Shown here: positions 17,578 through 29,864 of the stretch, piece after piece
Position numbering within the stretch: the stretch's first letter is position 1
How the letters are laid out: each line of letters begins with the position of its first letter
From: a virus
Length of the DNA stretch: 36,915 bases
Virus genome (UHGV): UHGV-0071814
Strand: one strand, 5' to 3'
Notes under the pieces: model-generated
Database searches by the model: none
Seen by the model: the letters and a program-made list of their open reading frames with translations, nothing else
Told to the model about the DNA's origin: nothing
Program-made: the position numbers and the translations under genes

Positions 17578-18015
17578 TCATCGAAGGCATTGCGTCCTGA
17601 TGTACTCCTGCAGGTAGTTAACCTGCGCGGTTATCCTGTCGATTCCACTTCGGAGACGGTAATAATTGAGTTCAGCATCTGCTGTAAGTCTTGGGCTTTC
17701 TCCATCGCCCATGCTGCTGGCTCCGGTCGTTGACTTTGCACAGGTGGCGGCGACTTGCAGGCGCTTACGACCAGCAGAAACATCAGCACGGAGACTTTCG
17801 ATAGTCGCGTTAGCATCAGCAAGCTCCTTTGTGTATCTGGCGTCGAGTTCTGCTACATCACGTTGACGCTTCTGCATGTCAGCGATGATGGATGTGGCTT
17901 TATCGCGCTGGTCTTTGTAGGCGATGGCGTTATCACGGTAATGATTAACAGCCCATGACAGGCAGACGATGACGCAGATAACCAGAGCGGAGATAATCGC
18001 GGTTACTCTGCTCAT
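17578..18015 (-). CDS. Rz: Rz i-spanin
   Basis: [31 protein letters not shown]...; N-terminal TM helix, lambda Rz-like. Confidence 0.85.
17631..17822 (-). CDS. Rz1: Rz1 o-spanin lipoprotein, embedded in the +1 frame of Rz
   Basis: Signal peptide, lipobox VVSAC, proline-rich [13 protein letters not shown]; fully nested in Rz. Confidence 0.75.
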
Positions 18016-19037: not shown

Positions 19038-19113
19038 TGGTGCTGGTTAACGGACTTGAACCGCTACCCATTCGCTTACAAGGCGACTGCTCTACCATTG
19101 GAGCTAAACCAGC
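19038..19113 (-). tRNA. tRNA, probably Thr (anticodon UGU)
   Basis: Manual fold: 7-bp acceptor stem, D arm GCTC/GAGC, anticodon loop CUUGUAA, T arm with GGTTCAAGTCC, 3' CCA. Confidence 0.6.
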
Positions 19114-19118
19114 ATATT

Positions 19119-19193
19119 TGGCGGGACAGCGTGGACTCGAACCACGATAAGAAGGTTAACAGCCTTCCGTAATGACCTTTATACGACTGACCC
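19119..19193 (-). tRNA. tRNA, probably Asn (anticodon GUU); one T-T mismatch in acceptor stem
   Basis: Manual fold: anticodon stem GAAGG/CCTTC, loop CUGUUAA, T arm GGTTCGAGTCC, 3' CCA. Confidence 0.55.
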
Positions 19194-25682: not shown

Positions 25683-26547
25683 GAACTTTCAGGTAGGTAT
25701 TATCGTTAAGCAGGAAATCAAATCCCTTTTTGTGCCAGACGGTTCCGCGTTGATGGTTTGGGCGTTCTTCGAACATCCATCGGCAATTTTCGCCTACGTA
25801 GCTCAAATAATTTCTCCAGTCCTGCATCGTGAACCCATGCCCGTCAAGCTGGCGGGTTATCACTCCGGCTTTGCGCCAGAACGTTCGGATCTGGTTTTTA
25901 CGCTTGTCATTCAGTGCGCGGATTCTTGGCGCTTCAGGAAGGATTTCGTGGTAAGCATCGACAACATCCTGACAGCTAACGGAAGGTTTTTTCTTGTCAG
26001 ACTTTTTGTCTGCTGTGGCACTCTCTAATACGTCAGTATTAGAGATATTATTTATATTATTGTTTATGGACAACCATTGGACAACCGTTGGACAATCTCC
26101 GCTGAGAGTCGCGCCATTACTGGTGTTTGCGTTGGACAACCGTTGGACAACCGTTGGACAATTTTTTGCCTGAAAATCGTCATATTTAACGATTGTAAAC
26201 AGGCTAAATTTCTTCCCCATCGAGCAAATATTAAGCATCCCTTTCGACTCAAAAGTCCGTAATAAGCTCCGAACTTTGTTGTCGGGGATGAATGTTTCTC
26301 TGACCAGCGACGGGCGTCCAGTTATCATCTGACCGCGATCAACAGTTATCGGACCGATATCCGTATTGACGACAGTAGATTCGTGATTAGCCTTGAGGAT
26401 TAAGTGAAGCCAAAGATGTACTGCCTGAGAGTCCTTATAGAGCCTGCTGTCCATAAACTGGCGGTGTATAGAGACATACCCCATACTGGATGCCTCCTGA
26501 TGTTGTACAGGGTTATGCCTGTAATCAGCTAACTTAACGACGCCCAT
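25657..26547 (-). CDS. Replication initiation protein (O-like; P22 gene 18-like); alternative start at ATG 26484
   Basis: Iteron array lies inside the gene; both candidate ATGs have AGGAG-type RBS. Confidence 0.7.
   Translation of the reverse strand: MGVVKLADYRHNPVQHQEASSMGYVSIHRQFMDSRLYKDSQAVHLWLHLILKANHESTVVNTDIGPITVDRGQMITGRPSLVRETFIPDNKVRSLLRTFESKGMLNICSMGKKFSLFTIVKYDDFQAKNCPTVVQRLSNANTSNGATLSGDCPTVVQWLSINNNINNISNTDVLESATADKKSDKKKPSVSCQDVVDAYHEILPEAPRIRALNDKRKNQIRTFWRKAGVITRQLDGHGFTMQDWRNYLSYVGENCRWMFEERPNHQRGTVWHKKGFDFLLNDNTYLKVREGEHDDR
26068..26163. repeat. Replication origin iterons: two clusters of three 11-bp-phased repeats (TTGGACAACCG/TTGGACAAT) flanked by AT-rich tracts
   Basis: GGACAACC/GGACAAT at 26068, 26079, 26090, 26134, 26145, 26156; AT-rich 26046-26066 and 26161-26215. 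Confidence 0.75.
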
Positions 26548-26695
26548 GTTTCACTCCTGCTTTGGCTAGTCTGTAAACACCAACAAGGCGCTCTGCGAAC
26601 GCCCTGTTATTTGCTGCGGCTACCACTGATCCCTCAGGTGAATCAGGGTGTCGAATCTCTTCTTTTTCCTGGTATTTCTTACGACGTTTTGTCAT
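26534..26695 (-). CDS. Small basic hypothetical protein between cII and O
   Basis: 53-aa ORF MTKRRKKYQEKEEIRHPDSPEG... with AGGAG 6 nt upstream; below ORF-track size cutoff. Confidence 0.3.
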   Translation of the reverse strand: MTKRRKKYQEKEEIRHPDSPEGSVVAAANNRAFAERLVGVYRLAKAGVKHGRR

Positions 26696-26729
26696 AATTA
26701 CTCCTGTGGATTGATCCAGTCTTTCTACA

Positions 26730-27008
26730 TCAGGCCTCGAAGAATTCGCCGTTCTTCGGGGCTTTTTCTTTTGTCAGCATTCTTGCTACTTTCTTAGCCA
26801 GTTTCGCCAACTCCTCGTCTTCAACACCCCATTCAAGAACAGCAAGAAGCATTCCCATTTTGGGGATGAAGCTGTCTTTCCATCGCGAAATTTGCGATTC
26901 ATTAATCCCTAACGCGTCGGCAACCTTTCGCTGACCACGTACAGCAATTCGATTCAGGATGTTGCTTGTAATTGCATTCGCTTTCTTGCGAGTACTTGTA
27001 AGTTGCAT
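26730..27008 (-). CDS. cII: cII-type transcriptional activator
   Basis: ...GINESQISRWKDSFIPKMGMLLAVLEWGV... matches lambda cII/P22 c1 core as recalled. Confidence 0.8.
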   Translation of the reverse strand: MQLTSTRKKANAITSNILNRIAVRGQRKVADALGINESQISRWKDSFIPKMGMLLAVLEWGVEDEELAKLAKKVARMLTKEKAPKNGEFFEA

Positions 27009-27066
27009 ATGTAAGTATTTCCTTAACTAATAAGAAGTTATGCGCATCAACTTATGCGCGTTGTAT

Positions 27067-27111
27067 TCCCGCATTTCGGCGGGAATGAGGACCATGACTG
27101 TTAAAGAGCGG
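27067..27111 (-). promoter_or_regulatory. nutR: boxA (CGCTCTTTAAC) followed by boxB hairpin (CCCGC-CGAAAT-GCGGG)
   Basis: Same boxA and boxB sequences occur at nutL (28740-28779) on the plus strand. Confidence 0.65.
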
Positions 27112-27116
27112 TGTTA

Positions 27117-27317
27117 CTATTTGTTTTTCTTGTTGCTTGGGAAAGGACGAACTTCCTCTCCAATCACACTGCCATCAGGCTTTACCGTAACCATAATGTT
27201 ACGGCCTGCCAGAATGGCCTTGCTGATAGCGCACTGGATTACACCAAAGTCACTGGCTGCTTTAGCCTGTCCATGGATTTTGGCGTAATCGGCAAGTGTC
27301 ATTCGAATCATATGCAC
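27117..27317 (-). CDS. cro: Cro repressor
   Basis: 66 aa; ...[37 protein letters not shown] resembles lambda Cro; divergent from cI. Confidence 0.8.
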
Positions 27318-27342
27318 TCTCCGTTATTAACCATGAACAAAG

Positions 27343-27406
27343 AATACTACAGGTATTCAAAGCAATCAATACTCAGGGTATTTTTAGTTTAAGTACCTTA
27401 GCTATT
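27343..27406. promoter_or_regulatory. OR operator region: three 15-bp sites with AATAC-N5-GTATT symmetry (27343-27357, 27368-27382, weaker 27392-27406), overlapping PR/PRM
   Basis: Palindromic half-sites read directly; centre spacing about 25 and 24 bp. Confidence 0.6.
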
Positions 27407-27417
27407 AGAATTAAGCT

Positions 27418-28134
27418 ATGGAAAATAAAAAATCACTGACGACAGAACAGCTCGAAGACGCTAAGCGGCTTAAGGCTTTGTATGAGTCAAAAAAGAAAGA
27501 ATTGGGAATAACCCAATACTCAATCGCTGATGAACTGGGTATCACCCAAGGAGCGGTAGGGCATTATCTTAATGGCAGAAACGCGCTAAACGTTGAGGTT
27601 GCATCTGGTTTTGCACGATTGTTGCAAGTCTCAATTGCTGATTTTAGCCAGTCAATTGCTGCCAAGGTTGCAGAACAGGCAGAAAGCCTTAAGAGCGATG
27701 CCAACGTAAGGTATGCAGGGGAATACAGAGCAGGAAAGAGGTATCCGGTGTTAAGCAGTATCCAGGCTGGCTCGTGGTGTGAAGCATGCGAACCATACAC
27801 CATTAAAGACATAGATGTTTGGCTTGAGTCTGACGCGCATATTCAAGGTAATGCGTTCTGGCTTAAAGTGGAAGGTGATTCAATGACGGCACCGGTTGGG
27901 TTAAGCATTCCAGAGGGAACATTCGTTCTTTTCGATACCGGAAGGGAGGCGATCAACGGCAGCTTGGTCATAGCAAAACTTTCTGACTCTAACGAAGCAA
28001 CATTCAAGAAGCTGATAATCGACGGCGGAAATAAATACCTCAAGGGACTTAATCCTGCATGGCCTCTCGTGCCAATCAATGGAAACTGCAAGATTATAGG
28101 CGTTGCAATTGAGACAAAACTAAGGCTGGTTTGA
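27418..28134 (+). CDS. cI: CI-type prophage repressor (HTH N-terminal domain + S24 LexA-like peptidase domain)
   Basis: 238 aa; LTTEQLEDAKRLKALYESKKKELG..., FWLKVEGDSMTAP...; homologous to lambda cI as recalled. Confidence 0.9.
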   Translation: MENKKSLTTEQLEDAKRLKALYESKKKELGITQYSIADELGITQGAVGHYLNGRNALNVEVASGFARLLQVSIADFSQSIAAKVAEQAESLKSDANVRYAGEYRAGKRYPVLSSIQAGSWCEACEPYTIKDIDVWLESDAHIQGNAFWLKVEGDSMTAPVGLSIPEGTFVLFDTGREAINGSLVIAKLSDSNEATFKKLIIDGGNKYLKGLNPAWPLVPINGNCKIIGVAIETKLRLV

Positions 28135-28151
28135 TCACGCAAGGGGCGATT

Positions 28152-28520
28152 ATGGTTGGAACCGCTATAGCAAGCTTTTTGGGGATGTTGGCAATCTCAA
28201 CAATTTACGGCTTAGCGCATGCTTTTATTGCGAAATCTCTATCAGAAAAAATAAGCCAGGCTTGGGCGCATAGATCTGCTCGTTTCATGATTCTGGTGAT
28301 CATAGCAATACAAGGGATATCTGCATTTATCCTCTATGGATCAAGCTTATACCTGTTGTATCAAGGCGCGACATTTACGCCTTACACCAGTGATTACGGA
28401 ACTCTATACGATGGTAGTGAAGACATCTCTATGGCTTGGATCGTCTTTGGTTTATCTATGGCCGTGTCTGTTGTAGCAGACATCATTAAGGTAATTCTCG
28501 TCTTAACCTTCGCTGACTAA
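28152..28520 (+). CDS. Small multi-pass membrane protein directly downstream of cI (rex-position cargo)
   Basis: ATG at 28152 with AAGGGG upstream; about 122 aa with three or four hydrophobic segments; ORF-track start 28131 is TTG. Confidence 0.55.
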   Translation: MVGTAIASFLGMLAISTIYGLAHAFIAKSLSEKISQAWAHRSARFMILVIIAIQGISAFILYGSSLYLLYQGATFTPYTSDYGTLYDGSEDISMAWIVFGLSMAVSVVADIIKVILVLTFAD

Positions 28521-28606
28521 CCTATAATCCCGGCAGCAATAGCTATCGGGATCCACTTCACATATCCCGCATAAAAAGCACTGAACAAGCAGACACCGAA
28601 AAAATA

Positions 28607-28691
28607 AATATCCTTTGTATTCATTTGCTTATCATTATTTCACCCAAAATAAATACCTTGGGTATTTACACAATAAAATACCTACAGTATT
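28607..28691. promoter_or_regulatory. OL operator region/PL: three sites with the same AATAC-N5-GTATT symmetry (28607-28621, 28652-28666, 28677-28691); candidate PL -35 TTTACA / -10 TATTCT
   Basis: Motifs identical in half-sites to OR sites. Confidence 0.55.
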
Positions 28692-28739
28692 CTTTAGCCA
28701 TCAGCAGGACGCTGGTAGCCAAACGGAACAGATTGGCAG

Positions 28740-28779
28740 GCTCTTTAACATTGATGGGATTGTCCCGCCGAAATGCGGG
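28740..28779 (+). promoter_or_regulatory. nutL: boxA GCTCTTTAA and boxB hairpin CCCGC-CGAAAT-GCGGG
   Basis: Exact counterpart of nutR elements; about 110 bp upstream of N. Confidence 0.65.
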
Positions 28780-28887
28780 AACCAAAGAGTAGTTGGCTTT
28801 GGGGTGACGTGAAGTGCAGCTGCACGACGGCAACCGGAAGATAAGCACCCGGCGCGTCACCGCCAAAGTCAATCATCGGAGGTCAAC

Positions 28888-29193
28888 ATGACAGTAGTCA
28901 TTACATATCTGGCTGATGATAACGCCAGAAATCGCCGCAGAGCACGCAGACAGGCTCAACGTGAACAGGCAATGCAAGAGCAGCGACTGGCACGAAAAAT
29001 TGCGCTAAAGCTCTCTGGTTGCGTCAGAGCAGATAAAGCAGCATCACTCGGAAGCCTTCGCTGCAAGAAGGCAGAAGAAGTCGAGCGTAAACAGAACCGT
29101 ATTTACTACCGCAAGCCACGCAGTGAAATGGGTGTGACTTGTTCAGGCCGCCAGAAGCAACGCGGAAAATCAATTCCAGCTTATTACGATTGA
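28888..29193 (+). CDS. N: Antitermination protein N
   Basis: Arg-rich motif NARNRRRARRQAQREQ near N-terminus; C-terminus ...YRKPRSEMGVTCSGRQKQRGKSIP like lambda N; AGGAGG RBS. Confidence 0.8.
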   Translation: MTVVITYLADDNARNRRRARRQAQREQAMQEQRLARKIALKLSGCVRADKAASLGSLRCKKAEEVERKQNRIYYRKPRSEMGVTCSGRQKQRGKSIPAYYD

Positions 29194-29200
29194 GGTGAGC

Positions 29201-29338
29201 CATGCTCAAGAAAGTCAAACGCCGACTTTACAAAGAAGGTAGATATTCATGCCATTTGCCAAAATGCGACACAGCAAAATGGAGTGTCGACGATTGGTGT
29301 AACTGGATAGATAGATACGGAACTTGGTGGGATAAATA
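29201..29338 (+). CDS. Small Cys-rich hypothetical protein
   Basis: 45-aa ORF MLKKVKRRLYKEGRYSCHLPKCDTAKWSVDDWCNW...; GAGGTGAG upstream; below ORF-track cutoff. Confidence 0.3.
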
Positions 29339-29393
29339 ACAGGTAACTTAAGCATATTTACTTTCGCAGCAAACCACTTATTTGAGGTGAGAT

Positions 29394-29864
29394 ATGACAA
29401 AATCATGGAGCGTACCTTTTCCTGAATCAGAAACTGAACATGATGGAATGCCTGTTTTCTGGAGATTCCAGGCGACAGTTGAAGAAGATGGAATCAAAAT
29501 ATTCGCACTTCAATATATAGCTTTTCATCAGACAGAGCATTATGCATGGTTGGTTCCTGCGCATTGGATTGTTAATTTTAAACCAACACCAAATCAGTGG
29601 TTACAGGAATGGAAACAAAGGAGAAATAGATATGCAATTAAGAAAGTAGCAAAAAATGCAGAAAGATCTTTTGCATTCCCGACGAAGAAACTTGCCATTG
29701 AAAGTTTATTGCGCCGGAAGAAATACCATTTAATGAGAATCAAACAAGATTTGGCTGTTGTATCAACTCTTGTTGATGGGATGAAGAATATTGATACATC
29801 AACACCAGATATTGAATATAACTTTGGACACAACCAAGAAACAGAAAACTGGGTGTTTTATTAG
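29394..29864 (+). CDS. Hypothetical protein, AT-rich moron downstream of N
   Basis: 156-aa ORF with low GC; followed by two hairpin terminators. Confidence 0.5.
   Translation: MTKSWSVPFPESETEHDGMPVFWRFQATVEEDGIKIFALQYIAFHQTEHYAWLVPAHWIVNFKPTPNQWLQEWKQRRNRYAIKKVAKNAERSFAFPTKKLAIESLLRRKKYHLMRIKQDLAVVSTLVDGMKNIDTSTPDIEYNFGHNQETENWVFY

Follow-up and report, generated by a model that had tools for sequence, protein, structure and literature searches.

Identical short palindromes that recur on both sides of a repressor gene raise the question of whether they are the operators of that repressor and, if so, which immunity type they define. The initial annotation of this locus had read an AATAC-N5-GTATT core, said to be present at both OR and OL, as the repressor target. 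We analysed the claim in the window, namely the whole stretch of 36,915 bp. The motif AATACNNNNNGTATT gave exact matches at 27343-27357, 27368-27382, 28652-28666 and 28677-28691, and all four were thus found just where they had been placed. The window-wide motif search that had been proposed as a check returned zero further exact copies. One pair of exact sites lies in the gap between cro and cI, which are divergent, and the other pair precedes N; the start-to-start distance is 25 bp in each pair (OR1-OR2 and OL1-OL2).

The genes around these sites are those of a lambdoid switch. The cI product gave a full-length match to lambda repressor (3bdn, E 2.9e-52), and its recognition helix, QGAVGHYLNGRN, lies in a lambda-cI-like HTH N-terminal domain, while the recognition helix of Cro begins Q-C-A-I-S-K. 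The divergent cI (HTH plus S24) and cro genes flank a short intergenic region of 106 bp, which contains three related imperfect palindromes; a second set stands at OL before N. At PR and at PL alike, the -35 and -10 hexamers overlap with operators, and the site nearest to cI overlaps a putative PRM read from the sequence. Elsewhere the window shows the backbone of a P22-like prophage, in which two adjacent tRNA genes, tRNA-Thr(TGT) and tRNA-Asn(GTT), were seen at 19038-19193 (-). The features of the immunity region are collected in Table 1. The repressor-operator reading is supported by this lambdoid gene context, by the overlap with early promoters and by the phylogenetic footprint described below. 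We therefore regard the sites, with a probability of about 0.9, as predicted OR and OL operators of a HK620-immunity lambdoid switch on a P22-like prophage.

Table 1. Genes, promoters and predicted operators of the immunity region (positions in the window).
Feature	Position	Strand	Sequence or product	Remarks
cII	26730-27008	-		canonical position; replication genes also follow cro
cro	27117..27311	-	64 aa, lambda-Cro family	PF09048 E 3.6e-26; 1cop E 4.7e-19
PR	27334..27369	-	-35 TTGATT (27369-27364), 17-nt spacer, -10 TATTCT (27346-27341)	
OR1 (predicted)	27342..27358 (core 27343-27357)		GAATACTACAGGTATTC	exact core; = HK620 OR1; overlaps PR -10
OR2 (predicted)	27367..27383		CAATACTCAGGGTATTT	exact core; overlaps PR -35, abuts putative PRM -35
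PRM (putative)	27383..27411	+	TTTAGT, 17-nt spacer, TAGAAT	read from sequence
OR3 (predicted)	27391..27407		AAGTACCTTAGCTATTA	2 core mismatches; overlaps putative PRM spacer and -10
cI repressor	27418..28134	+	238 aa	HTH_3 and Peptidase_S24 (autocleavage) domains
hkaS-like membrane protein	28152..28520	+	phrog_6534, function unknown	between cI and OL
Third OL site (best candidate)	28606..28622		AAATATCCTTTGTATTC	1 core mismatch; within HK620 tIMM palindrome
OL3 of HK620 record	28629..28645		TTATCATTATTTCACCC	3/10 core positions; PWM rank about 17,886/36,895 (median)
OL2 (predicted)	28651..28667		AAATACCTTGGGTATTT	exact core; = HK620 OL2; overlaps PL -35
PL	28665..28693	+	TTTACA, 17-nt spacer, TATTCT	promoter scan; annotated pL in HK620
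OL1 (predicted)	28676..28692		AAATACCTACAGTATTC	exact core; = HK620 OL1; overlaps PL -10
N-like antiterminator	28888..29193	+		first gene of PL operon; canonical position

The motif counts were compared with dinucleotide-preserving shuffles (n=100). Four exact cores were seen against 0.04 expected, and 0/100 shuffles reached four. When one mismatch was allowed, the window held 5 sites against 0.77 expected; with two mismatches it held 17 against 13.2, which is the chance level. Might the palindromes then be inverted repeats that arose by chance in AT-rich promoter DNA and bind nothing specifically? Both regions are indeed AT-rich, and the two-mismatch count is what such an origin would give. 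However, the exact and one-mismatch sites far exceed their expectations and all fall in OR or OL, and their cores are invariant across phages of diverged genera while the spacers vary. This explanation is thus effectively refuted.

A symmetrised position weight matrix (PWM) was built on 35 distinct exact-core sites from the window phage and its relatives, and 36,895 positions were ranked by it. The four exact sites scored 22.8-25.6 bits. In essentially all 35 family sites, the N5 spacer begins with a pyrimidine (C or T) and ends with a purine (G or A). As this preference was not imposed by the search, the half-site is really AATACY. The count of four exact plus two degenerate sites made in the initial annotation was also borne out, the degenerate sites being those at 27392-27406 and 28607-28621.

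The first of these is OR3. Its core, AGTACCTTAGCTATT, lies 24 bp from OR2 and ranks 7/36,895 with 5.5 bits. In both the window and HK620 it reads AGTAC-N5-CTATT, with two mismatches, and is weaker than the OR3 of most diverged relatives, which stands at the same offset with one mismatch (AATAG-N5-GTATT, or AATAC-N5-CTATT in Hafnia phage Pocitis76). The weak sequence of OR3 suggests that, in the E. coli lineage, PRM autorepression or the binding of Cro is weaker. As for the promoters at OR, the PR hexamers were read by eye from the sequence; they match at 8/12 positions, under the threshold of the promoter scan, and the pR of the HK620 record is the identical sequence. PRM is absent from the HK620 annotation, and its TAnnAT hexamer is kept at that offset in the relatives. 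Six nt separate the end of the putative PRM -10 from the cI ATG, and a Shine-Dalgarno sequence is absent; as in lambda, cI is therefore probably translated from a leaderless mRNA.

To which immunity group do these operators belong? The record of coliphage HK620 is said to go back to Clark et al. 2001 (J Mol Biol 311:657). It annotates OR1, OR2, OR3, OL1, OL2, OL3, pR and pL (AF335538), and the immunity region of the window is 98.9% identical to it over 1.9 kb, with none of the 20 SNPs falling in five of the operators. After coordinate transfer, OR1-3, OL1-2, pR and pL were base-for-base identical, i.e. 5/6 sites. Hence, the comparison with known lambdoid operator sets that had been proposed as a check ended in sequence identity with the HK620 operators. 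Given 98.9% identity of the N-terminal domain of cI and the same operators, the window phage is predicted to belong to the HK620 immunity group; its backbone is a different P22-like mosaic. The same immunity region, 98.9-99.4% identical, was found in HK620, HK630, HK140, mEpX2, HF4s and some Stx phages, and a survey of 5,426 complete E. coli genomes found it in 146. As the operators already stand in the HK620 record of 2001, their presence here is a known and ordinary finding; the operator annotation of that record is itself a sequence-based prediction. At the right-hand side, the N-like ORF has 101 aa in the window, compared with 90 aa (273 nt) annotated in HK620. Because the 3' ends of N differ, the immunity module probably has its right-hand mosaic boundary in N or immediately behind it.

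Diverged relatives were drawn from IMG/VR loci and GenBank phages. Whole-protein identity of cI was 76-87% in the IMG/VR loci, and identity of the cI N-terminal domain was 67-84% in Hafnia phage Pocitis76, Serratia phage vB_SspS_OS31 and Erwinia phage vB_EhrS_49. The recognition helix QGAVGHYLNGRN was identical in all of them. Exactly or with up to two core mismatches, AATAC-N5-GTATT occurs in these relatives at three offsets from the cI ATG (-72 to -76, -48 to -51 and -25 to -27) as well as at OL. In the Hafnia, Serratia and Erwinia phages the operator offsets from cI are the same as in the window, while the spacers and central bases differ; operator annotation was not seen in these three records as far as they were inspected. 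In an OR alignment of 10 lineages (related to one another rather than independent, and aligned in part on the motifs), 24/30 core positions were invariant against 12/70 non-core positions (Fisher p = 3e-9). The core of OR1 was unchanged across all 10, and their non-core OR DNA is 43-59% identical to the window. Near-identical copies vary at 23 positions of OR and OL, of which no more than one falls within the 60 core positions (p = 0.003). When this test was split, OL alone gave p = 0.008, while OR alone was not significant (p = 0.18). Specificity is thus shared across genera although the DNA-binding domains have diverged by 16-33%, and Escherichia, Hafnia, Serratia and Erwinia phages with QGAVGHYLNGRN and AATACY may form a cross-genus homoimmune group.

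A natural variant was found in Escherichia phage Fostie (L004 1920-2000). Its cI helix is QSAVGHYLNGRN, with one change from G to S, and position H2 of its Cro helix is Ile in place of Cys (QIAISKA). Three sites stand at the same offsets in its OR, and their half-sites are ACTAC, AGTAC or CATAC. Helix and half-site have therefore changed together, which is the covariation expected if the helix reads those bases, and by this comparison Fostie looks like a neighbouring immunity specificity.

These observations bear on a second alternative, namely that the palindromes are real binding sites of a regulator other than cI, such as a host factor, cII or Cro alone. The literature searched contained no direct binding evidence for HK620-type immunity, be it a footprint, an EMSA or a genetic operator mutant, and this leaves such a regulator some room. 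Yet every phage with QGAVGHYLNGRN has the same operator core, Fostie, whose helix is QSAVGHYLNGRN, has an altered one, and the sites are arranged about the cI start, PR and PL as in lambda. As to cII, its sites are TTGC-N6-TTGC repeats, which are annotated elsewhere. We consider a reader other than cI highly improbable.

The likeness to lambda is one of architecture. The cI and Cro proteins of lambda are homologous to those of the window, and its operators are also 17-bp sites, odd-symmetric about the central base pair. Measured from the cI ATG, the centres of OR3, OR2 and OR1 lie at 19, 43 and 68 bp in the window and at 19, 42 and 66 bp in lambda (J02459 annotation), and the overlap of the operators with PR, PL and PRM is the same, the PRM of the window being putative. 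The rex position of lambda is occupied by the hkaS-like gene.

The initial annotation had stated that the half-site differs from that of lambda, and this proved correct: (A/G)AATACY and TATCACCG agree at positions 2, 5, 6 and 7, where lambda likewise has A2, A5, C6 and a pyrimidine, and they differ at the other three (1, 3 and 4). The recognition helices differ too. The lambda cI helix is QSGVGALFNGIN, of which 6/12 residues are changed in QGAVGHYLNGRN, and the lambda Cro helix is QSAINKAIHAG. The window phage thus has neither the half-site TATCACCG nor the helix QSGVGALFNGIN of the imm-lambda group. Because both half-site and recognition helix are different, it is predicted to be heteroimmune to lambda. 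The cI changes Ser->Gly, Gly->Ala and Ala->His presumably correspond to S45, G46 and A49 of lambda. For Cro, an 'evolutionary code' reportedly originated with Hall, Lefevre and Cordes 2005. As summarised in PMC6649833, the code pairs Gln at H1 with A+2, Ala at H3 with A+5 and Lys at H6 with G-6 (= C+6). The window Cro agrees with the code, as lambda does, having Gln H1, Ala H3 and Lys H6 together with A2, A5 and C6. The half-site changes at positions 1, 3 and 4 coincide with Ser->Cys at H2 and Asn->Ser at H5 of Cro. It is conceivable from these substitutions that Cro H2 and H5, together with the cI residues at S45, G46 and A49, set the new specificity.

What did not hold fully was the regular geometry of the two triplets, which had been described as spaced by about 25 bp. 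This is true of OR (25 and 24 bp) but not of the third OL site, as nothing motif-like stands about 25 bp from OL2. Two segments tried as OL3, 28627-28641 and 28630-28644, of which the second is the one annotated in HK620, each agree at 3/10 core positions and rank near 17,800/36,895. The only one-mismatch site of the whole window is AATATCCTTTGTATT at 28607-28621, which lies 45 bp from OL2 and ranks 5/36,895 with 12.0 bits. Since 45 bp is 21 bp, or two helical turns, beyond the usual 24-25 bp, helical phase would be kept. A degenerate site likewise stands at -45 in the relatives L070 and L071 and in Serratia phage OS31, and 0/10 core positions of 28606-28622 are polymorphic among 60 near-identical OL loci. 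Other relatives place the third OL site elsewhere: 29 bp from OL2 with two mismatches in Pocitis76, and 21 bp with an exact core in EhrS_49, in which three exact OL sites were observed at spacings of 21 and 25 bp (L090 3912-3972).

The HK620 record offers a different assignment, in which 28629-28645 is the third OL operator and the palindrome at 28602-28632 is the cI-operon terminator tIMM (AF335538, 2001). Besides being the existing GenBank annotation, it sets OL3 22 bp from OL2, near the 20 bp that separate OL2 and OL3 in lambda and the 21 bp in EhrS_49, against 45 bp for our candidate. However, the annotated OL3 has 3/10 core positions and a median PWM rank. It also differs between HK620 and the window at 2/17 positions, and 4/17 of its positions are polymorphic in the 60 near-identical OL loci, accounting for 4 of the 13 variable positions of 28599-28700. 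By its sequence, 28629-28645 is not supported as an operator. Nor did tIMM behave as an intrinsic terminator: its hairpin is all-A/T, with an RNA dG of -0.6 kcal/mol, 148/200 shuffles fold at least as well, and the terminator scan made no call at the palindrome. The assignment of the record is thus unlikely.

A further alternative is that OL has only two functional operators, the -45 site being a non-functional relic. The L073 group, which shows no comparable third OL site and lacks one at the -45 offset, and the atypical 45-bp spacing both point in this direction. Conservation speaks against it, as the -45 offset is kept in four diverged lineages, among them L070, L071 and OS31, with no polymorphic core position in the near-identical loci and a PWM rank of fifth in the window. 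A two-operator OL is a possibility that we take seriously but find rather doubtful. On balance, we lean modestly towards 28606-28622, rather than the annotated OL3, as the third OL operator. The OL3 and tIMM features of the HK620 record accordingly look misassigned, and their reassignment would be a probable correction.

Several other elements near OL were observed. A hairpin at 28527-28552 (AUCCCGG...CGGGAU) stands directly past the hkaS stop, with a U-tract absent; the 80-nt fold that holds it has about -15 kcal/mol and z -2.1. The actual 3' structure of the cI-hkaS transcript may be this hairpin instead of tIMM. A 34-aa hydrophobic ORF, MNTKDIYFFGVCLFSAFYAGYVKWIPIAIAAGIIG, runs from 28624 to 28520 (-), so that its start adjoins the -45 site and it converges on hkaS. 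As a divergent OL-regulated gene it was rejected: a stop follows after three codons in L070 and L071, and Pfam gave no match. The ORF is unlikely to be a gene. The RefSeq PGAP annotation of at least one E. coli genome has an 81-aa hypothetical protein antisense over OL1, PL, nutL and the N start (L087 1677-1922, window about 28666-28911, -). This call is likely spurious, the DNA being regulatory. An Rfam scan of 26500-29500 gave one match only, at chance level (SCARNA7, E 0.95).

Taken as a switch of the lambda type, the locus would work as follows. Dimers of cI and of Cro would read 17-bp odd-symmetric sites with the half-site (A/G)AATACY. In the lysogen, cI at OR1 and OR2 would block the -10 and -35 of PR, and cI at OL1 and OL2 would block PL; the third OL site would most likely be the one at 28607-28621. 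Repressor on OR2, whose centre is at about -43 relative to the start of the leaderless cI message, would be placed to activate PRM, while the weak OR3 over PRM would provide negative autoregulation and a target for Cro. RecA-stimulated autocleavage of the S24 domain of cI would lift repression. We infer the actual binding, the cooperativity, the activation of PRM and the looping from this arrangement.

The prophage is thus predicted to be of an HK620-like immunity type, heteroimmune to lambda, 434 and P22. The immunity type predicts which superinfecting phages the prophage excludes, and has little import beyond annotation. What the analysis adds is a probable correction of OL3 and tIMM and the recurrence of one operator specificity in several enterobacterial genera. 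The series of HK620, Fostie and lambda provides a clean natural case of covariation between recognition helix and half-site in the lambda cI/Cro family.
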